Shown: piece by piece, positions 3,984 through 59,466 of the stretch
How the letters are laid out: the number at the start of each line of letters is the position of its first letter
How positions within the stretch are numbered: the first letter of the stretch is position 1
From: Candidatus Woesebacteria bacterium RIFCSPLOWO2_01_FULL_39_61
GTDB lineage: Bacteria > Patescibacteriota > Microgenomatia > UBA8517
Assembly: GCA_001793155.1 (NCBI GenBank)
Contig: MGHI01000039.1
Span: 1,119 to 65,118, forward strand
Direction of reading: 5' to 3'
Length of the DNA stretch: 64,000 nucleotides
Made by a program: the position numbers and the translations under genes
Notes under the pieces: model-generated
The model's input: the letters and a program-made list of their open reading frames with translations, nothing else
Database searches by the model: none
What the model was told of the DNA's origin: nothing

Positions 3984-5180
3984 TTAATACATAAGTAAAT
4001 ATCTGATAATAAGGAAAGAATTAATCATAAAAAGGAAAAATATGCTCGTAAGTATAAATGCTAGGTTCACTTGTTTCATTAGTTTCTCGATAAAGTAGGC
4101 GAGACCAAAGGTAATTATTGGGTAAGTCGTTATCAGCATCCGAATACTATATGATCCTCCCTGATAATAGTCTCGCCACGAAGCGATTAGATAAAGTTGT
4201 ATTAAAAAATAGAAAATCCCCATAAAACTTATCAATTTTTGCTTTTTCCAAAATAAAAATAATCCAAATAGACCCAGAGCAATCGTAGGAGTTAGTATAA
4301 AAAGCCCGTTCTGGATGTTAAAAAGTACATAACTTATATGGGGTGAAAGAAATGTGAACCCATAACCCCAACCGTAAGGCGGAAAATAAAAGTCAAAAAA
4401 TATTTTCCAAAGATAGATTTGAGGAAGAAAGCCGAGGAGGATACCAGTAACAAGTAACAAGTAACAAGTAACAAGAATTTTTAGATGCTTTCTGAACTTA
4501 AAAAATATCGCGATAGCGGGAATTGTAAAAATAATAATATCCTGCGTTCTTATAGTTCCAGCAAGTCCCGAAAGAATCCCAAGTATAAAAACGTCGCCGA
4601 GCGTGAGGTTTTCTAGTTTAGTTGACAAATAATAGACCACAAGTGAAGAGATAAAAAAAGACACAGCGTGGGAATTTATTGGTTCGACGGCGATATAGAA
4701 TAGGAGATTTGTGGTTGCAAAGAGAATAAATGCTGCAAATAAGCTGCTTTGGTTTTTAAAATATTTTTTCAAAGTATGGTAGACAAAAAATAGACCTAGC
4801 ACACCGAGAATGATGTTTATTAACCCGACGGCAAATTGATAAGTGAGCTCCAGTCCTGTTCTTTGCAAAGTTATCAATCTAACGAGGTTATCGGTTAGCA
4901 AATACGGAAAATACCATAAAATGGCAGACCCTGGAGCAAAGGTGTTTATCGCCAGACCTCGCGAGTTAACTGATGGTTTTATACCCAAAAGTTCGAAATC
5001 GTTTACTAAATTTATATCGCGATCAAAAACCCAGGATCTTACGTAGGCATAATAAAATTTACCGTCGCCAAAAACTGCGTTTTTGGTAAAGATGGTATGA
5101 CCAATAAAGATTACTATCGAAAAAATAAATATATATGTAAAAAATTTTATTGTGGCAATTTGCTTAATAGCTTTTTCCAT
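3984..5180 (-). CDS. polytopic membrane protein, possible GT-C-fold glycosyltransferase (ArnT/PMT-like)
   Basis: 398 aa with about 11-12 hydrophobic helices; contains the in-frame (GTAACAA)x4 tract. Confidence 0.4.
   Translation of the reverse strand: MEKAIKQIATIKFFTYIFIFSIVIFIGHTIFTKNAVFGDGKFYYAYVRSWVFDRDINLVNDFELLGIKPSVNSRGLAINTFAPGSAILWYFPYLLTDNLVRLITLQRTGLELTYQFAVGLINIILGVLGLFFVYHTLKKYFKNQSSLFAAFILFATTNLLFYIAVEPINSHAVSFFISSLVVYYLSTKLENLTLGDVFILGILSGLAGTIRTQDIIIFTIPAIAIFFKFRKHLKILVTCYLLLVTGILLGFLPQIYLWKIFFDFYFPPYGWGYGFTFLSPHISYVLFNIQNGLFILTPTIALGLFGLFLFWKKQKLISFMGIFYFLIQLYLIASWRDYYQGGSYSIRMLITTYPIITFGLAYFIEKLMKQVNLAFILTSIFFLFMINSFLIIRYLLMY
4447..4475. repeat. heptanucleotide tandem tract (GTAACAA)x4 inside a CDS
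   Basis: Direct reading: gtaacaagtaacaagtaacaagtaacaag. Confidence 0.8.
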
Positions 5181-28703: not shown

Positions 28704-28776
28704 GGATGCGTAGCTCAATGGTTAGAGCACCAACCTTATAAGTTGGGGGTTCCTGGTTCGAGCCCAGGCGCATCCA
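28704..28776 (+). tRNA. tRNA-Ile with anticodon TAT (UAU)
   Basis: Hand-folded cloverleaf: 7-bp acceptor GGATGCG/CGCATCC, D-arm TAGCTCAATGGTTAGAGC (Ile-like), anticodon stem CCAAC/GTTGG, loop CTTATAA, T-loop TTCGAGC, discriminator A. Confidence 0.75.
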
Positions 28777-28794
28777 CTTTACTTTCAATCTTAA

Positions 28795-32456: not shown

Positions 32457-32526
32457 TGCGGGGTAGTGTACGGCTGCACGGAAGGCTCATAATCTTCCAG
32501 GCCGGGTCCGACTCCCGGCCCCGCAA
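32457..32526 (+). tRNA. atypical tRNA-like gene with a CAT anticodon (possible tRNA-Met/Ile2 or a pseudo-tRNA)
   Basis: Hand fold: acceptor starting U1:A72, 4-bp D-stem with a 6-nt loop containing GG, canonical anticodon loop CTCATAA, T-arm CCGGG/CCCGG with loop TCCGACT (C at position 55), discriminator A. Confidence 0.4.
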
Positions 32527-32531
32527 CACGA

Positions 32532-32603
32532 GCCAGCGTAGCTCAGCGGTAGAGCAGAGATTTCATAAGTCTAAGGTCACTGGTTCGATCCCAGTCGCTG
32601 GCA
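32532..32603 (+). tRNA. tRNA with anticodon CAT (elongator Met or Ile2)
   Basis: Acceptor GCCAGCG/CGCTGGC, D-arm GCTCAGCGGTAGAGC, anticodon loop TTCATAA, T-loop TTCGATC; lacks initiator features. Confidence 0.75.
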
Positions 32604-32671
32604 CTTATTTTATTAAACGTGCCCCATAATGTTCACTTTATCTTTAACTTGAGTTAAAATCTCCCTAATCC

Positions 32672-37622: not shown

Positions 37623-38012
37623 ATGATAAAAGGTATTGATGCAGTTACACTTTTTAGCGAAAACGCAGAAAAACTTGCTAAATTTTACAAAGAAAAAGTT
37701 GGCTTAAAACCAACTGGTGAATTTGTAATGGGTGAGGGAAAAGATGAGGCTAATGTATATATGTACGAATATAAAAAAGGTGGCGATTTTGCGATAATTG
37801 ACCACTCAAAAGTGAAAGGAAAGAATAAGAATCCGGAAAGATACCTCGTTAACTTCGAAGTTGATGATATAAAGAAAGAAGTTGCCAAGCTTAAAAAGAA
37901 TAAGGTTAAGGTTATTGCCGATACTTACCATGTAGAAGGGTACGGTTGGGTTGCAACTTTTCAGGATATTGATGGAAACTACTTTCAGCTGGTACAAGTT
38001 AGACCGAGTTAG
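37623..38012 (+). CDS. VOC/glyoxalase-family protein
   Basis: Small beta-alpha-beta-beta-beta modules; ORF track 37557.. trimmed to the ATG. Confidence 0.5.
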   Translation: MIKGIDAVTLFSENAEKLAKFYKEKVGLKPTGEFVMGEGKDEANVYMYEYKKGGDFAIIDHSKVKGKNKNPERYLVNFEVDDIKKEVAKLKKNKVKVIADTYHVEGYGWVATFQDIDGNYFQLVQVRPS

Positions 38013-38036
38013 TAGATAGCAAATAGTAGATAGAAG
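38009..38036. repeat. left inverted-repeat arm (agtagat agcaaat units) flanking the four-helix-bundle gene
   Basis: ttagtagatagcaaatagtagatagaag; its reverse complement recurs at 38439..38485. Confidence 0.8.
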
Positions 38037-38061
38037 ATGGGAAAAAAGATAAACTGTCTTA

Positions 38062-38424
38062 GTGGCTAAAATCGAAAGATTTACAGATCTTAAAGCATGG
38101 CAAGAAGGGCACCAATTAGTCCTTATGATCTACGGAGTTGTCAAGACTTTCCCAAAAGAAGAAAACTTCATCCTTACTACTCAAATACTCCGAGCTGTAA
38201 TATCTGTTACTAATAATCTGGCTGAGGGGTTTGGTAGAAGATATTATAAAGAAAAAATTCAGTTTTATTCGATGGCCAGAGCTTCATTGGTTGAAGTTTG
38301 CAATCAACTTATGATAGCCAGAGATGTTGGTTATTTGAACAGAAAAGACTTTGACTTTGTATGGGAACAAACTGACAAAGTAGGTAGATTAATTACAGGA
38401 TTAATAAAAAGTATTAAAAAATAA
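38062..38424 (+). CDS. four-helix-bundle protein (TIGR02436-type, the '23S rRNA intervening sequence protein' family)
   Basis: LKAWQ...FPKEE...LTTQILRAV.S...NLAEGFGRR motif series typical of the family. Confidence 0.85.
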   Translation: MAKIERFTDLKAWQEGHQLVLMIYGVVKTFPKEENFILTTQILRAVISVTNNLAEGFGRRYYKEKIQFYSMARASLVEVCNQLMIARDVGYLNRKDFDFVWEQTDKVGRLITGLIKSIKK

Positions 38425-38438
38425 GACTTAGTCCTATA

Positions 38439-38485
38439 ATTGCTATTTGCAATCTACTATTTGCTATCTACTATTTGCTATCTAC
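38439..38485. repeat. right inverted-repeat arm (atttgct atctact units, three copies)
   Basis: attgctatttgcaatctactatttgctatctactatttgctatctac. Confidence 0.8.
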
Positions 38486-38489
38486 CAAA

Positions 38490-39611
38490 ATGAAAGTAGC
38501 ATTGGTCCATGACTACATAAAAGAGTATGGGGGTGCCGAGAGGGTTTTGGAAGCTCTCCACGAAATTTGGCCGAACGCAGACGTTTATACATTGGTTTAT
38601 CTGCCGAAATTTCTGGGACCCCACAGGGAGAGATTTAAAAACTGGAATATTAAACCTTCAATTCTACAATACGTACCCCTAAAGGGAAAGCTTATTAGTA
38701 TGTTTCGGTTGATTGATCCATTGGTTTTTAAAATGATGGATTTATCGGATTATGACCTAATTATTGTTTCGGCTGCTGGTACGTATACAGGGGTAAATTC
38801 ATTCAAAAAGAGTAAAAAATCACTTCATATCTGCTATTGCCATACACCCCCAAGATACTTATACGGTTATGCCACAGCCAATAAGTGGACGACAAATTCA
38901 CTGAGAAGATTTTTATTAATTTTGGGGCAAATTCCGATACACTTTATAAGACTTTATAATTTTATCGATTCCCAAAAACCTGATTATTTTATTGCAAACT
39001 CAAAAGAAATTGTTGCAAGAATAAATAAATTCTATAGAAGAGATGCAACTGTAATTCATCCGCCGATTGATATTCCAAAAATTCTCAAAAGTACTCCAAT
39101 AAAGGACAGAAAATATTATTTGACCGGAGGAAGATTAGCTAGGGCTAAGAGATTTGACTTGGCAGTCGAAGCCTGTACAAGACTTAATTTACCCTTGAAA
39201 GTCTTTGGCCGTGAATTTGCTGGCTACGGTAAAGAATTAAAAAGTTTAGCTGGTCCGACAGTTGAGTTTTTAGGTGAAGTCTCCCAGGAGAAAAAATGGA
39301 GTCTTATCAAGAATGCAAAAGCCTATATTTCTCCTTCCTTACAGGAAGATTTCGGCATGCTCAATTTGGAAGTTAATGCTGGTGGGACTCCCGTTATTGC
39401 CTATAAATCAGGGGGTGTTTTGGAAACCATAATTGATGGCAAAACAGGAATTTTTTTCGATGAACCAAGTGTAGAGTCTGTCATTGCCGCAATAAAACAG
39501 TTTAACAGGATAAAGTGGGACAAAAAGAAACTTCAAGAAAACGCTAGGAAATTTTCAAAAGAACGGTTTGAAGACGAAATAAAAGAGTTTGTAAAAGCTA
39601 GAGTTCAATGA
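38490..39611 (+). CDS. GT4-family glycosyltransferase
   Basis: C-terminal EX7E-like region (NLEVNAGGTPVIAYKSGGVLETIIDGKTG). Confidence 0.8.
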   Translation: MKVALVHDYIKEYGGAERVLEALHEIWPNADVYTLVYLPKFLGPHRERFKNWNIKPSILQYVPLKGKLISMFRLIDPLVFKMMDLSDYDLIIVSAAGTYTGVNSFKKSKKSLHICYCHTPPRYLYGYATANKWTTNSLRRFLLILGQIPIHFIRLYNFIDSQKPDYFIANSKEIVARINKFYRRDATVIHPPIDIPKILKSTPIKDRKYYLTGGRLARAKRFDLAVEACTRLNLPLKVFGREFAGYGKELKSLAGPTVEFLGEVSQEKKWSLIKNAKAYISPSLQEDFGMLNLEVNAGGTPVIAYKSGGVLETIIDGKTGIFFDEPSVESVIAAIKQFNRIKWDKKKLQENARKFSKERFEDEIKEFVKARVQ

Positions 39612-48034: not shown

Positions 48035-49132
48035 ATGCGTATTAATAAAATTAGACTTTCAAATTTCAGAAACTTTAAGGCCCAAATTCTGGAGTTTTCG
48101 GAAAAAATCATTGTTATTGTTGGTCCAAATGCATCAGGTAAAACAAATATTATAGAGGCGATATTTCTTCTTTCTACCGGTAAGTCATTCCACGCTCGAG
48201 TCGAGGAAGAGATGGTTCACTACGAAGAGGAAATTGGACGAGTAAAAGGTTCGGTGGTAGAAGCTGACAAAGAAAGAGTCGGTACAAATCTGGAGGTAAT
48301 CTTGACCCGCGGTGAAATTACAGTTGGTGTATCTCCCAAAAAAACCGAAAGGATTGCAAGGAAAAAATTGGTCGTTAATGGAGTTGCCCGGCGTCTGGTT
48401 GATTTTGCCGGGAGGTTCAAGGTGGTACTTTTTGGGCCTTGGGACATGAGTATCGTAACCGGACCCCCAACGCTTAGAAGGAATTTTTTGGACACAGTGC
48501 TATCGCAGGTTGACAGAGAGTATAGAAGGGCCTCCCTTTCCTATGAGAAAGGCCTAAGACAAAGAAACAGACTACTTTTCAGGATCAGAGAAGAAGGATT
48601 ATCGAGAAGCCAGCTTCTTTTTTGGGACCAACTTCTTATCAAAAACGGCAATTATCTAACCCAAAGGCGTGAAGATTTTATTGGTTTTGCAAATAAACGA
48701 CCATCTTTAAATAACCAAGTTTTTAATATTGAATACGACAAAAGTATCATCAGTCAGACCAGGCTGGAGCAGTATAAAGACGAGGAAGTTGCTGCCGCAA
48801 CTACACTGGTCGGACCCCACAGAGATGACTTCATCTTCAAAATCCAAAATCCAAATTCCAAATTCCAAAAAGAAAGAGAACTGAGCAGGTACGGGAGTAG
48901 GGGGGAACAGAGGATGGGTATCTTGTGGCTCAAAATAGCCGAGCTTTCTTTTATCGAGAGCGAATCCGAAGATAAACCGACTCTTTTATTGGACGATATT
49001 TTCTCTGAACTTGATCACGAACACAGAAAGATTGTTTTGGACGTTTCCAAAAACCAACAGACGATCATTACAACGGCTGATCCTCATTATATTGAAGAAT
49101 TTGAGAAAATTGAAATAATTAAGCTAAAGTGA
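48035..49132 (+). CDS. recF: DNA replication and repair protein RecF
   Basis: Walker A GPNASGKTN, signature and D-loop LLLDDIFSELD. Confidence 0.85.
   Translation: MRINKIRLSNFRNFKAQILEFSEKIIVIVGPNASGKTNIIEAIFLLSTGKSFHARVEEEMVHYEEEIGRVKGSVVEADKERVGTNLEVILTRGEITVGVSPKKTERIARKKLVVNGVARRLVDFAGRFKVVLFGPWDMSIVTGPPTLRRNFLDTVLSQVDREYRRASLSYEKGLRQRNRLLFRIREEGLSRSQLLFWDQLLIKNGNYLTQRREDFIGFANKRPSLNNQVFNIEYDKSIISQTRLEQYKDEEVAAATTLVGPHRDDFIFKIQNPNSKFQKERELSRYGSRGEQRMGILWLKIAELSFIESESEDKPTLLLDDIFSELDHEHRKIVLDVSKNQQTIITTADPHYIEEFEKIEIIKLK
48836..48870. repeat. heptanucleotide tract (TTCAAAA TCCAAAA TCCAAAT TCCAAAT TCCAAAA) inside recF
   Basis: Read directly; encodes an N/K/Q-rich loop (KIQNPNSKFQKE). Confidence 0.8.
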
Positions 49133-49482: not shown

Positions 49483-49507
49483 GGTTAGTGATAGTATATT
49501 GAGAGAA

Positions 49508-49583
49508 GTAATAAGTGACAAGTAACAAGCGACAAGATTTAGATATTGGAGGGACAACTTGTTACCTGTTACATGTTACTTAG
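49508..49583. repeat. solo inverted repeat of heptad units (GTGACAA/GTAACAA arms, 21-nt spacer)
   Basis: gtaataagtgacaagtaacaagcgacaag ... cttgttacctgttacatgttacttag. Confidence 0.75.
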
Positions 49584-50478
49584 AATTTTTGATAAGTCTG
49601 ATTTAATTAAACTCTACAAACCCCATCCAGAATCTTCAGGGGAAGATAATGGGCAGGTAACGATCGTCGGAGGATCCAAGCTTTTCCACGGAGCGCCGCT
49701 TTTATCTTTGACGACTGCTTCCAGAATTGTGGACATGGTCTTTTTTGCAACACCCGAGAAAAGCGTTGGGATGATCGCAGAAAAGTTAAAATCCAAATTA
49801 CTTTCGTTCATCTGGACACCTTGGGAGGATGTTGAATCCTATATCGAAAAGTCTGACGCCGTACTTATCGGACCCGGATTTATGCGTTTTGGAAGTGAGA
49901 GTACTTCCGAGGACGATCGTGATTTTTCAAACCACAATGAAGGGAAACAATCCAGGGGAATAACGGAAAGACTTTTAAAGAAGTTTCCCGACAAGCGCTG
50001 GGTAATTGATGCGGGGAGCTTGCAGACTATGGACGAAAGTTGGATTCCCAACGATTCTGTTCTCACCCCCAACGTTAAAGAGTTCGAATTGCTTTTCAAA
50101 ATGAAAAATCAAATATCAAATATTAAAGATTCAAATCAAAAATCAAAAATTGTTTTGGAAAAGGCCAAAGAACACAATTGTATTCTTGTTTTAAAGGGTC
50201 CTGAAACCGTCGTTTGTTCACCGGAAGAATGCGTTGTAGTTAGGGGAGGCAATCCGGGGATGTCAAAAGGAGGTACGGGTGATGTTTTGGCCGGATTAAC
50301 CGTTGCACTTTTAGCCAAAAACGAACCCTTTTTAGCGGCGTCCTGTGCAAGTTATATTGAAAAGGCTGCAGCTGATGAACTTTATAAAAAAGTCGGAACC
50401 AACTATAACGCCGATGATTTAACCAATAAAATTCCAGAAACCTTTTATAATTTACTAAATAATAAAGACCTACCCTGA
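49573..50478 (+). CDS. ADP/ATP-dependent NAD(P)H-hydrate dehydratase (YjeF C-terminal domain, Nnr2)
   Basis: GGS..F.GAPLL, DADAL-like, GGTGDVLAG motifs; ORF track 49546.. trimmed to the ATG. Confidence 0.8.
   Translation: MLLRIFDKSDLIKLYKPHPESSGEDNGQVTIVGGSKLFHGAPLLSLTTASRIVDMVFFATPEKSVGMIAEKLKSKLLSFIWTPWEDVESYIEKSDAVLIGPGFMRFGSESTSEDDRDFSNHNEGKQSRGITERLLKKFPDKRWVIDAGSLQTMDESWIPNDSVLTPNVKEFELLFKMKNQISNIKDSNQKSKIVLEKAKEHNCILVLKGPETVVCSPEECVVVRGGNPGMSKGGTGDVLAGLTVALLAKNEPFLAASCASYIEKAAADELYKKVGTNYNADDLTNKIPETFYNLLNNKDLP
50104..50152. repeat. A-rich heptad tract (7 units, AAATATC/CAAATCA-like) inside the nnr CDS
   Basis: Read directly; encodes NQISNIKDSNQKSKI. Confidence 0.7.
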
Positions 50479-50522
50479 GCGAAGCCGAAGGGTTGTTTTT
50501 TCCGCAGAATCTCCGTAAGATA

Positions 50523-50551
50523 GTAACAAGTGACAGGTAACAAGTAAAAAG
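50523..50551. repeat. left inverted-repeat arm (GTAACAA GTGACAG GTAACAA GTAAAAA) ending 3 nt before the four-helix-bundle gene ATG
   Basis: Read directly. Confidence 0.8.
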
Positions 50552-50553
50552 TT

Positions 50554-50925
50554 ATGGAAAAAGCTGGAATAAAACCTGTTGGATACGAGAAACTATTGGC
50601 CTGGCAGGTAGCAGATGAATTCGCGCGGGAAGTTTATTTGTTAACAGATTCTTTTCCTAAACATGAAGTGTATGGTTTGATATCACAATTAAGGCGTGCA
50701 GCACTATCAGTCCCGCTAAATATAGTTGAAGGTCATTCTAGATACAATAAAAACGAATTTCGTAATTTTTTGAGGATTGCTTTAGGATCTCTTGCAGAGA
50801 GTGATTATCTTCTTAAATTTGCTCTTAAAAGAAAGTATATTTCAGATAGTGATTACAAAAAAGTATCCATCTTGCGCGAGAAATGCGGCAAGTTACTTTG
50901 GAGCTTGATGAAATCGCAAAAATAA
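50554..50925 (+). CDS. four-helix-bundle protein (TIGR02436-type), second copy
   Basis: LLAWQ...FPKHE.YGLISQLRRAALS...NIVEG motif series. Confidence 0.85.
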   Translation: MEKAGIKPVGYEKLLAWQVADEFAREVYLLTDSFPKHEVYGLISQLRRAALSVPLNIVEGHSRYNKNEFRNFLRIALGSLAESDYLLKFALKRKYISDSDYKKVSILREKCGKLLWSLMKSQK

Positions 50926-50933
50926 TATTTAAA

Positions 50934-50960
50934 ACCTGTTACATGCTACTTGTTACTTAA
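50934..50960. repeat. right inverted-repeat arm (reverse complement of GTAACAA-type units)
   Basis: acctgttacatgctacttgttacttaa. Confidence 0.8.
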
Positions 50961-50967
50961 AACTGAG

Positions 50968-52029
50968 ATGTATTTTCCGAAGTTTACTATTACCAATAAA
51001 ACTCTGAAGAGTATAGGCCAAATCGAGGCAGCCAAAGAAGTAATAGAAAACGCACCCCTTGTTCCTTACTACGAAAAACAATTTCAGTCCGAGGCAATAG
51101 CTCGGATGGTTCACCACGGAACCCACATTGAAGGGAATGAACTCTCATTGGAACAAACCAGAAAAATTTTGGAAGGTGAAAACGTTGTAGCTTATGAAAG
51201 AGACATTCAAGAGGTAATAAATTATCGTAATGTCATGAACCTTTTGGAAGAACTCGTTCACAAAAGGGGAGGATACGATCTTCAAGGTTTAATCGACATC
51301 CATAAAGAAACTGTTAACAAAATTGTTCCTGATGAAAAAGTGGGGGTTTTAAGAAACACACAAGTTGTCATCAAGGAAGAAGGAAGCGGAGAGGTGATTT
51401 TACAGCCACCACCTTATATTGAAGTTCCGTATCTTATCGATGACTTTCTGGAATGGTTAAACGCAACAATCGCGAAAGAAATTCATCCGATAATCCGAGC
51501 TGGTATTGCACACTACATTTTGGTTGCCATTCATCCCTTTGTCGAAGGGAACGGGCGCACGATCAGAGCTTTCTCGAATTTGATTTTAATGCGCGAGGGC
51601 TATGACATAAAGCGTTTTTTTGCCTTGGAGGAGCACTTTGACGGAGATTTGAGCACTTACTATGAAGCTCTAGCCTTGGTCGATAGACAATCAAAAAATA
51701 TCGCTGCGAGGGATTTAACCAGCTGGCTTGAGTATTTTACCGGAGTCGTTGCTATAGAGCTATCCAAAATTAAAGAGAAGGTCAGGAAAATTTCCATAGA
51801 CACAAAGTTAAAAAGTAAAATTGGCGAACAGATTGCACTAACCGAAAGACAAATGAAACTGGTCGAATATCTTTCCGAAAATAATTCGGCCGGAATGCAG
51901 GAGTTGAGAAGGACGCTTCCAATGGTTTCCGAAGATACAATTTTAAGAGATGTTACAGATCTTATGGAAAAGAAAATCATCAAAAAGCAAGGAAAAACTA
52001 AAGCGTCGAGGTATATAATAAATAAATAA
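50968..52029 (+). CDS. Fic/DOC-family protein with a C-terminal winged-helix domain
   Basis: Fic motif HPFVEGNGRTIR. Confidence 0.8.
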   Translation: MYFPKFTITNKTLKSIGQIEAAKEVIENAPLVPYYEKQFQSEAIARMVHHGTHIEGNELSLEQTRKILEGENVVAYERDIQEVINYRNVMNLLEELVHKRGGYDLQGLIDIHKETVNKIVPDEKVGVLRNTQVVIKEEGSGEVILQPPPYIEVPYLIDDFLEWLNATIAKEIHPIIRAGIAHYILVAIHPFVEGNGRTIRAFSNLILMREGYDIKRFFALEEHFDGDLSTYYEALALVDRQSKNIAARDLTSWLEYFTGVVAIELSKIKEKVRKISIDTKLKSKIGEQIALTERQMKLVEYLSENNSAGMQELRRTLPMVSEDTILRDVTDLMEKKIIKKQGKTKASRYIINK

Positions 52030-52055: not shown

Positions 52056-52130
52056 AAAAATGTAATTTAAAATGTAAATTTTGGATTTTTATTTTTCATT
52101 TTGCGCTTTGCATTTTTGATTTTTGAATTA
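52056..52130. repeat. AT-rich intergenic block of heptad units (minus-strand reading TCAAAAA TCAAAAA TGCAAAG CGCAAAA TGAAAAA ... TCCAAAA)
   Basis: Read directly; same unit family as the recF and nnr tracts. Confidence 0.65.
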
Positions 52131-58108: not shown

Positions 58109-58140
58109 CTTCTTAAAACTAAAAAGTGATATTATACCCA

Positions 58141-59466
58141 ATGAATATCATTGCCGATTTGGAGGTTCACTCTAAGTACGCCCGGGCGGTTTCACCTTCA
58201 ATGAACGTTCCCACAATTGCCCTTTGGGCTGATAAAAAAGGAATTGATTTAGTGGGTAGCGGGGATTTTACTCACCCCATGTGGTTAAGGGAACTCGAAT
58301 CTCAACTGGAGGAGGATGGCGATGGGATTTATAAATTGAAAAATTCCGCAACAAAGTCTAGATTTTTACTGACCTCTGAAGTTTCTTGCATTTATACTCA
58401 CAACGGAAAAGGTAGACGAGTACACATCATGGTTTATTTACCAAGTTTTTCTTCTGTTAGAGCTTTTAATGAGGAATTGACAAAACGAGGCGCAAATTTA
58501 TTTTCTGACGGTCGGCCTATTATCGGTTTGACTCTTACCCAAGTAGCAGAAATTGCTTTGACGGTCGACAAAAGGGCTCTGATTATCCCAGCTCATGTTT
58601 GGACTCCCTGGTTTGGGTTTTACGGAAGTATGAGTGGATACGATAGTTTATCCGAAGCTTTTGGAAATCTGGAAAAATATATACCGGCGGTAGAAACAGG
58701 TCTTAGCAGCGACCCTGCAGCAAATTGGAGAATAGGAGAACTAGCTGGAAAAAGGATCGTTTCCTTCGGAGACGCGCACTCACCTCAAAAACTGGGTCGG
58801 GAAGCGACGGTGTTTCAAATTAAAAATTCAAAATTAAAAATTACTTACCAGGATGTTTATGACGCCATTTGGAATAAAACTGATGGTGGTTGGGAGATTG
58901 CGTATACAATAGAATTTTATCCGGAAGAAGGAAAGTATCACTATACGGGACACAGAAGCTGCAACATTGTCTATTCGCCGAATGAAGCCAGAAAATGGGG
59001 TATGACCTGTCCTACCTGCGGTAGGCAATTAACGATGGGGGTTATGAGTAGAGTAGAGGCACTTTCTTCGCAAGAAATTACAAATGACAAATTACAAATT
59101 ACAAATGATAAGTTGGGTGTAGCCTGGATTAGAGACGAGAAAGGAAAGTATCCTCCATACGTAATGCTTGTTCCGCTTTTGGAAATTCTTTCCGAAGCTC
59201 TGATTGCTGGAGTCGGCAGCCAGACGGTCATAAATGTTTATGAACAGTTAATACACAGTTTTGAAAGTGAATTCAATGTACTTCTTAAAACGGAAATAGC
59301 AGATATTGCAAAAATGGCGGGGCAGAAAATTTCTGAAGCAATTCAAAAAGTACGATCTGGTGATATTTTTATTAAACCCGGATATGATGGGGTTTTTGGT
59401 ACGGTAAAAATTTGGAAAGAGGAAGAAGAAAAAGAAATGGGTAACAATCAGGCAAGCTTGTTTTGA
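58141..59466 (+). CDS. endonuclease Q-like protein (PHP domain plus C-terminal zinc ribbon)
   Basis: N-terminal ADLEVHSKYARAVS...DLVGSGDFTHPMW pattern and C-terminal CPTCGRQLTMGV; resemblance to archaeal EndoQ is recalled from memory, not computed. Confidence 0.5.
   Translation: MNIIADLEVHSKYARAVSPSMNVPTIALWADKKGIDLVGSGDFTHPMWLRELESQLEEDGDGIYKLKNSATKSRFLLTSEVSCIYTHNGKGRRVHIMVYLPSFSSVRAFNEELTKRGANLFSDGRPIIGLTLTQVAEIALTVDKRALIIPAHVWTPWFGFYGSMSGYDSLSEAFGNLEKYIPAVETGLSSDPAANWRIGELAGKRIVSFGDAHSPQKLGREATVFQIKNSKLKITYQDVYDAIWNKTDGGWEIAYTIEFYPEEGKYHYTGHRSCNIVYSPNEARKWGMTCPTCGRQLTMGVMSRVEALSSQEITNDKLQITNDKLGVAWIRDEKGKYPPYVMLVPLLEILSEALIAGVGSQTVINVYEQLIHSFESEFNVLLKTEIADIAKMAGQKISEAIQKVRSGDIFIKPGYDGVFGTVKIWKEEEEKEMGNNQASLF
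58814..58845. repeat. heptad tract (TTCAAAT TAAAAAT TCAAAAT TAAAAAT) inside the EndoQ-like CDS
   Basis: Read directly. Confidence 0.7.
59077..59111. repeat. heptad tract (ATTACAA ATGACAA ATTACAA ATTACAA ATGATAA) inside the EndoQ-like CDS
   Basis: Encodes the duplicated peptide ITNDKLQITNDKL. Confidence 0.8.

Follow-up and report, generated by a model that had tools for sequence, protein, structure and literature searches.

Inverted heptanucleotide arrays enclose PF05635 four-helix-bundle genes in Patescibacteria and on plasmids of other phyla

In a 64,000-nucleotide stretch of the genome of Candidatus Woesebacteria bacterium RIFCSPLOWO2_01_FULL_39_61 (contig MGHI01000039.1; the whole stretch is referred to as the window), a gene for a small four-helix-bundle (4HB) protein of the PF05635 family is enclosed by two arrays of tandem 7-nt units (heptads) that are complementary to each other. 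The same packaging recurs around most family members we examined, both in the candidate phyla radiation (CPR; Patescibacteria) and on plasmids of other phyla. The arms differ in sequence between loci and still pair within each; arms and gene are found together or missing together, as a single block; and purifying selection acts on the protein. PF05635 is a large family of unknown function, misleadingly annotated as “S23 ribosomal” or “23S rRNA IVS protein”. Heptad-hairpin packaging, gain or loss as one block and a selected protein together suggest that the intervening sequence (IVS) of rRNA genes is one landing site of a general cassette. Our preferred reading, held with moderate confidence, is an IVS-type cassette that shares a transcript with its neighbours and is excised from it at the stem by RNase III. 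The locus, cassette 1, comprises the following features (all on the plus strand, including the two neighbouring genes).

38011..38486, plus strand: cassette 1 as a whole (left arm, short leader, 4HB gene, right arm)
38011-38038, plus strand: left (5') arm, 28 nt, four heptads AGTAGAT AGCAAAT AGTAGAT AGAAGAT
38037..38069, plus strand: candidate upstream open reading frame (ORF) of 10 codons (ATG GGA ... TAA), read from the sequence and tentative
38062..38424, plus strand: 4HB gene, GTG start, 120 aa, isoelectric point (pI) 9.55, with PF05635 and TIGR02436 profile matches
38438-38486, plus strand: right (3') arm, seven heptads AATTGCT ATTTGCA ATCTACT ATTTGCT ATCTACT ATTTGCT ATCTACC
37623..38012, plus strand: VOC/glyoxalase-family gene, upstream neighbour
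38490..39611, plus strand: GT4 glycosyltransferase gene, downstream neighbour

An earlier, sequence-only reading of this DNA had proposed a TIGR02436-type gene at 38062..38424, and profile searches bear this out: the protein matches PF05635 (E 6.4e-33, 113.6 bits; curated cutoff 33.8) and TIGR02436 (E 1.7e-31, 108.6 bits; curated cutoff 24). Its closest match in the PDB, entry 2GSC (E 4.7e-19), is the Xanthomonas campestris protein XCC0516, the family member that has been crystallised. At the R-x3-S-x3-N-x2-E-G core motif, previously remarked on for the family (PMC3936711), S48, N52, E55, G56 and R59 are invariant and R44 is nearly so across 28 sequences.

The left arm opens within VOC's TAG stop codon (38010-38012) and closes 23 nt 5' of the GTG, in line with the 28 nt ending about 25 nt before the start that had been described; its sense strand contains G and almost no C. 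For the right arm, the described onset 14 nt after the 4HB stop codon is correct, and the “three units” counted there hold only as 14-mers: the arm spans 3.1 copies of a 14-nt double unit, that is, seven heptads, and its last base lies 3 nt before the GT4 ATG (38490). Cassette 1 takes up the entire VOC–GT4 spacer. Between the arms, inverted repeats of 30-34 nt with a match of 85-90% exist in two registers, shifted by 14 nt from each other. Three copies of the 21-mer AGTAGATAGCAAATAGTAGAT are present in the window, each of them in one of the two arms, as against no occurrence in shuffled sequences. When the RNA from 37995 to 38500 was folded, the arms paired with 22 bp of uninterrupted closing stem, where a stem of about 28 bp or more had been anticipated (z = -5.55; 0 of 100 shuffles folded as well). 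The right arm is not followed by a T-run of the kind expected of an intrinsic terminator.

The candidate upstream ORF begins with an ATG in the left arm's final heptad and extends at its 3' end across the GTG with which the 4HB gene starts. An equivalent ORF is found in one syntenic ortholog (L092, about 2945-2983), and in another (L093) the 4HB ORF begins at that very ATG. Judged from the sequence, such a placement may reflect coupled translation, or else a start codon hidden within the stem.

The 6.4-kb locus is identical in three independent assemblies, including GCA_001792515.1. This rules out an assembly artefact and also means that no within-species variation in heptad copy number is visible. 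An Rfam scan of the 64-kb window matched only three tRNAs and a DUF3800-III RNA and no rRNA, which, together with the gene calls, agrees with the described setting between VOC and GT4. That the gene lies outside rRNA had been singled out as notable. The setting as such is real; it is no oddity, given that none of the 80 closest loci lies inside an rRNA gene and that this location is the rule for the subfamily. Cassette 1 is an ordinary member of its family.

Two related, Woesebacteria-like contigs, L092 and L093, retain the VOC–4HB–GT4 order, with 4HB proteins 76% and 68% identical to that of the window. The arms have changed at both loci (L092, AGCAGGT TGCAGAT AGTAGAT AGTAGAT versus ATTGCT ATCTGCA ATCTACA AAATACT ATCTACT; L093, GTAGAAA GTAGGAT GTAGGAA GTAGAAT versus ATCCTGC TTCCTAC ATAATGC ATCCTAC) and still pair, so that the flanking complementarity on which the sequence-only reading had staked its proposal is preserved in the orthologs. 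The syntenic 4HB genes show dN/dS values of 0.09-0.14 at a dS above 1.8, where synonymous sites are saturated. That the arms continue to pair at this divergence, with dN/dS low, means that protein and pairing have both persisted for longer than unconstrained sequence would take to become random.

The search for empty sites among relatives, likewise suggested at the outset, returned two. Locus L085, the one clean empty site to come from a search based on GT4, has the order exonuclease–VOC–GT4, with FtsH 84% and VOC 70% identical to the window's; only 14 nt (GTTAAAATTAGCCG) separate the VOC stop from the GT4 start, without gene, heptads or hairpin. Independently, a 493-nt block of arms plus gene on the Nostoc edaphicum plasmid pNe_5 (L097) corresponds to 13 nt in a Calothrix plasmid (L104), the flanks being 85% identical. 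Because the gene and both arms are absent together at two sites, they form one unit, and the arms belong to that unit rather than to the site, as the proposal of a self-contained, hairpin-enclosed cassette had implied. Neither filled-versus-empty comparison reveals an evident target-site duplication, the flanks of the CPR pair being too diverged for resolution at the base level.

The called genes within 3 kb on each side of cassette 1 encode FtsH, a 5'-3' exonuclease, VOC, GT4, a protein without a Pfam match and an ABC ATPase. In another relative (L084, 1985-2060; GT4 77% identical), VOC and cassette are both missing and the exonuclease gene is directly followed by GT4, whose start carries the heptad-like series ATGATAC TTAATTC ATGATAC ATAATAC. 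GT4 identity among the syntenic relatives ranges from 38% to 77%, and the exonuclease/GT4 junction therefore seems prone to recombination.

The family comparison covered the 80 loci closest to cassette 1 among species-representative genomes; each comes from a Patescibacteria-like metagenome-assembled genome, and their proteins are 49-63% identical to that of the window. Tandem arrays of at least three copies numbered 126 at period 7, as compared to seven each at periods 6 and 8. Array length peaked sharply at four units (106 of 223 arrays; median 30 nt). The heptads vary from locus to locus (GAATTTA, GAGTTAG, CGCATAA, GCCGTTA, GTATTTT and others), agree within each locus, and share the common core G-W-A-T-n-A-n. 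For 62/81 genes, the best inverted match between the 5' and 3' flanks scored at least 12; flanks paired across loci reached this score in 8/81 cases, and directly oriented or shuffled ones in 0/81 (within-locus versus cross-locus score, Wilcoxon p = 3e-12). In minimum-free-energy folds, the flanks shared a median of 30 base pairs, versus 12 with a shuffled 3' flank, and 71/85 loci had at least 20 such pairs, versus 23/85 in that control. The arms are polar, with G exceeding C on the sense strand of the 5' arm in 61/65 loci.

Might heptad microsatellites simply be common in this genome, two of them happening to flank a small gene? Heptad arrays do lie at other places in the window, some of them within coding genes. 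Against this stand the zero count of arm 21-mers in shuffles, the excess of complementary flanks within over across loci, the recurrence of the pattern in other phyla, and the fact that nothing but a 4HB gene or a short loop lies between paired arrays. Shuffles and the cross-locus, direct-orientation and shuffled-flank controls together rule out chance or a generic microsatellite, and we consider coincidence extremely improbable.

The inverted array pairs of the CPR loci fall into two classes: 15 gene-less hairpins with loops of 3-121 nt, and about 55 pairs spaced 347-459 nt apart that enclose a 4HB gene. No cargo other than a 4HB gene or a short loop was found in these pairs. Three pairs at ~400-nt spacing were inspected as candidates for other cargo; one held a divergent 4HB paralog, and the remaining two were ordinary genes between neighbouring arrays. 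At L073 (3137-3520), a second, divergent 4HB paralog of 127 aa, overlooked by tblastn at E 1e-5, lies between inverted heptad arrays 411 nt apart.

The window itself contains a second cassette and gene-less relatives of its arms (no strand is assigned to the latter).

50522..50958, plus strand: cassette 2 (left arm, 4HB paralog, right arm)
50522-50549, plus strand: left arm of cassette 2, AGTAACA AGTGACA GGTAACA AGTAAAA
50554..50925, plus strand: 4HB paralog of cassette 2, 123 aa, 33% identical to the cassette 1 protein, pI 9.62
50936-50958, plus strand: right arm of cassette 2, C TGTTACA TGCTACT TGTTACT T
49507-49581: gene-less heptad hairpin, AGTAATA AGTGACA AGTAACA AGCGACA, a 22-nt loop, then TGTTACC TGTTACA TGTTACT
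4446-4475: solo array, (AGTAACA) x 4.3, of the cassette 2 heptad family, inside the membrane-protein ORF 3984..5180 (minus strand), where it is translated as LVTCYLLLV

Despite sharing one genome, cassettes 1 and 2 carry different heptads. The gene-less hairpin (fold z = -5.28) lies ~1 kb upstream of cassette 2, has the heptad family of that cassette and fills a divergent intergenic spacer.

Beyond the CPR, a tblastn search of plasmids returned 27 records, mainly from Nostocales, plus Riemerella and Gemmatirosa. Inverted arms abut the ORF at 12 of the 16 plasmid loci read, with these arm heptads.

Calothrix: GGGTGTA/CTACACC
Nostoc edaphicum: TAGGGAG/TCCCTAC
Riemerella: GGTTCAA-type
Geminocystis: AAGGGAA/TCCCTTT
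several Nostocales: AGTCAGR
Anabaena 90: GGTGACA

Among the exceptions, one Nostoc copy has a downstream array only and lies beside an ISL3 transposase, and one Calothrix copy has no arrays. Several plasmid cassettes are intra-operonic, being found at a cmr2-cmr3 junction, beside cas4 and cas6, and between two ribonucleotide reductase genes. Three 4HB genes reside inside CRISPR-Cas operons (L099, L102 and L110; cmr2-cmr3, cas6-cas4 and beside cas4), two of them with inverted arms. A survey of cas loci had listed 23S_rRNA_IVP genes among cas genes (PMC3936711). As copies at cas positions carry arms, they look like cassette insertions, and the comparison of these sequences suggests that the reported CRISPR association of the PF05635 family stems from insertion into operon spacers, not from a common function. 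The L102 copy (Pseudanabaena galeata pPg_01, 490-1075), between cas6 and cas4, has at least 15 AAAAGCT units upstream and about nine AAAAGCC units downstream.

The closest known system is the 23S rRNA IVS with an S23p ORF, as in Coxiella burnetii and Leptospira, which has the protein family in common with the cassettes and likewise holds the ORF in a ~28-bp stem, sense to the host transcript. A likeness to such stems had been suspected from the start, and the Coxiella arm indeed turns out to consist of tandem heptamers: AGAAGA, three tandem GACAGAT and a degenerate GACAGAA immediately precede the S23p start, within a stem of 28 bp, and the heptamer copy number differs by strain (Warrier et al. 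2016, PMC4990558). Cassette 1 matches an IVS element in its ORF-enclosing complementary termini and in the tandem heptamers directly 5' of the start codon; AGAAGA leads the Coxiella arm, and AGAAGAT is the last unit of the window's. The systems differ in heptad sequence and in host site, which is helix 45 of 23S rRNA in Coxiella and here the spacer between the protein-coding VOC and GT4 genes rather than a 23S rRNA gene. They also differ in the fate of the protein, since the window-type protein is under purifying selection (dN/dS ~0.1), whereas Coxiella S23p is reported to be decaying and is probably untranslated (PMC4990558). For Coxiella, in-vitro cutting by RNase III was demonstrated at the first repeat, and rapid amplification of cDNA ends mapped the ends formed in vivo (PMC4990558); for the cassettes we infer such cleavage. 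PF05635-type domains have further been noted in some 16S and 23S insertions in a study of CPR rRNAs (10.1101/2024.02.27.582315).

On this basis, a family-wide cassette would consist of a PF05635 gene inside a stem whose arms are short arrays, typically of about four units, of a locus-specific heptad. Lacking a recognisable promoter or terminator, the cassette would most likely be transcribed along with its neighbours. Co-transcription is likely because cassette 1 fills a tiny spacer, the median gap among the CPR loci is 43 nt, neighbours are co-oriented with the 4HB gene (upstream 68/76, downstream 73/80), and the CPR loci show no excess of promoter or terminator consensus matches. At the RNA level, the G-containing 5' arm would pair with its C-containing 3' counterpart into a double-stranded stem of at least 22 bp, which a double-strand-specific RNase, by analogy with the Coxiella IVS presumably RNase III, would cleave. 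Cleavage would free the 4HB RNA and leave the flanking cistrons, or rRNA halves, usable. Since the flanks would thereby be spared, the cassette could sit harmlessly in any transcribed spacer, operon or rRNA, and this tolerance may be the selective reason for the stem. The arms would evolve by slippage and concerted change, with the result that heptads differ between loci while each pair of arms stays complementary.

Several observations weigh against this RNA-processing reading. No RNase III gene signature was found within the 64-kb window. A need for double-stranded RNA alone explains neither the strict period of seven nor the narrow length peak at four units. It also leaves unexplained the hairpin at 49507-49581, where a single transcript across both arms is unlikely given the divergent spacer, and the arrays inside genes. 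The same holds for two loci with direct repeats, namely Pseudanabaena L102, whose long heptad arrays on both sides share one orientation, and Gemmatirosa L103, which is flanked by direct 8-mers. Nostoc L097 lies antisense to both of its neighbours. Finally, stem mismatches (53 G.U-compatible versus 46 of the A.C type) show no RNA-type bias and do not discriminate between pairing at the RNA and at the DNA level. These unexplained observations keep alive two other models, one of a DNA element and one of a protein-binding array; RNA processing, DNA element and binding array are not mutually exclusive.

The first of these posits a DNA-level mobile element with an end defined by structure: the heptad hairpin would be recognised in a folded single-stranded or a cruciform state, and not through its sequence. 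The element's own nucleic-acid-binding factor would be the basic 4HB protein, gene-less hairpins and solo arrays would be non-autonomous derivatives resembling MITEs (transposable elements of the miniature inverted-repeat type), and RNA processing would be a side effect. Such an element would account for arms and gene as a presence/absence unit at two sites, for gene-less hairpins that have the heptads of a nearby cassette, for a divergent spacer that holds a hairpin and coding genes that contain arrays (settings unlikely to involve an RNA role), and for the four-unit array peak across taxa. The protein's pI of 9.6 also fits. So does its relationship to Avd, the accessory protein of diversity-generating retroelements (DGRs), which has a homologous basic four-helix-bundle fold and acts as a nucleic-acid-binding pentamer. 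By analogy only, REP/RAYT systems (repetitive extragenic palindromes with their associated transposases) and MITEs likewise feature a small gene between inverted, short structured repeats that are also found gene-less elsewhere in the genome. Here, in contrast to those systems, HUH or other transposase motifs are missing, the repeat is not conserved among copies, and no target-site duplication was evident at either empty site, as far as the diverged flanks of the CPR pair allow. The conserved terminal repeat expected of MITEs and terminal-inverted-repeat transposons is likewise absent, as the arms of the window's two cassettes differ and heptads change at nearly every locus. The protein has no known catalytic motif, and the cassette encloses no transposase or integrase; it has remained syntenic and stable over a dS above 1.8; no 4HB cassette copies were found in phage or viral collections; and the G-arm/C-arm polarity is not required by a symmetric DNA structure. 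On balance, we regard a DNA element as unlikely, if still a serious contender, and the cassette's mobility as putative.

The heptamer at the start of XCC0516, the structural match noted above, also speaks for a DNA element. X. campestris harbours 186 GGGAATC arrays, mostly of four units (28 nt); about 70 pairs of them, placed in operon spacers, are convergent (Rehm et al. 2015, PMC4692102), and these pairs make hairpins with 21-67-nt loops (PMC4692102). Repeat #15 (ATCC 33913, 622956-622983; S2 Table A) has four units, lies 6 nt from bccP (XCC0517) and has a 17-nt overlap with the XCC0516 start codon (PMC4692102). Tandem 7-nt units, a modal number of four, convergent pairs in spacers and a repeat adjoining a 4HB gene, XCC0516, are thus features shared with the CPR cassettes. 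The Xanthomonas paper does not link GGGAATC to the S23p family, and the XCC0516 repeat has no listed partner array (PMC4692102). GGGAATC arrays are G-rich and were interpreted as quadruplex-forming (PMC4692102), whereas CPR heptads contain one G per unit. We rejected the quadruplex reading as a general rule for heptamer repeats because units with a single G cannot form quadruplexes.

In the second model, heptads would be putative sites at which a pentameric 4HB protein binds the mRNA or DNA of its own gene, serving autoregulation or a domesticated host function, and arm complementarity would be secondary. The strict 7-nt period with its conserved G-W-A-T core in CPR units, the narrow peak in unit number, the strong purifying selection on the protein and the persistence of non-inverted flanking arrays at L102 are consistent with binding sites. 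Two findings run counter to it: heptads differ widely between paralogs of one genome and between phyla, and complementarity within a locus is the statistically outstanding feature. We judge a binding array to be quite improbable.

The relationship to Avd raised the question of whether the gene is a stray DGR accessory gene. It matches the bAvd profile PF22296 (33.6 bits) and NF033474 (29.9 bits) weakly, both scores being under the curated cutoffs (40 and 80 bits); its neighbours are VOC and GT4; no reverse transcriptase was called in the 6-kb locus, which likewise lacks template/variable repeats; and heptad hairpins are not a described feature of DGRs. The sub-cutoff scores and the neighbourhood rule out an Avd identity, to which we assign a negligible probability.

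Gene-less tandem heptads have been described elsewhere. Geobacter metallireducens contains families of elements made of four tandem heptanucleotides (PMC2700814). These elements and the short tandemly repeated repetitive (STRR) heptanucleotides of cyanobacteria resemble the arrays described here, by description only, in having tandem 7-nt units, often four, between and within genes and a function that is unknown; no PF05635 association has been described for either. We tentatively raise, as a rather doubtful proposition, that PF05635 cassettes and the gene-less four-heptad hairpins and arrays of CPR, Xanthomonas (GGGAATC), STRR-like and Geobacter elements are one system. It may take the form of an autonomous element with non-autonomous derivatives, or of a basic pentameric protein with genome-wide heptad sites. 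If true, one system would account for an excess that has long been noted, that of heptanucleotide repeats in the genomes of bacteria, and rRNA intervening sequences would merely be copies that landed in rRNA. The cassettes in any case offer a lead on why such repeats are over-represented in some bacterial genomes, and they join three separate literatures. In the full text of the literature searched, mostly from non-subscription journals, no statement of a family-wide heptad-packaging rule was found, an earlier description being possible; the packaging, the whole-block presence or absence and the connection with heptad hairpins that lack a gene seem to have gone undescribed so far.

Inside coding ORFs of the window, translated heptad arrays lie at 48838-48870, 50098-50150, 58817-58843, 59075-59106 and 4446-4475. 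Their hosts, with motifs read by eye, are a RecF-like gene (GPHRDDFIF-KIQNPNSKFQ-KER), an NAD(P)HX-dehydratase-like gene, ORF 58126..59466 (two arrays) and the membrane protein mentioned above. To judge from their translations, these arrays look like short in-frame insertions. Directly after cassette 2 follows a gene (50950-52029) with the Fic-type motif HPFxxGNGR in the form HPFVEGNGR, read by eye in the translation. The spacer 3' of this Fic-like gene contains a T-rich period-7 array of about seven ATTTTTG-like units (52078-52126). It is weakly complementary to 50098-50131, 1954 nt apart, and between the two arrays lie cassette 2 and the Fic-like gene; this weak pairing is probably an effect of composition.

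Among the tRNAs of the window, a tRNA-Ile at 28704-28777 has a UAU anticodon, an uncommon bacterial way of reading AUA. Two tRNA genes with CAU anticodons (32457-32527 and 32532-32604) lie 4 nt apart, one of them scoring much lower than the other (43.8 as against 65.1 bits); the lower-scoring one may be an initiator or a lysidine-type tRNA-Ile. The DUF3800-III RNA (Rfam) maps to 1978-2080 on the minus strand, with 45.6 bits against a gathering score of 43.8.

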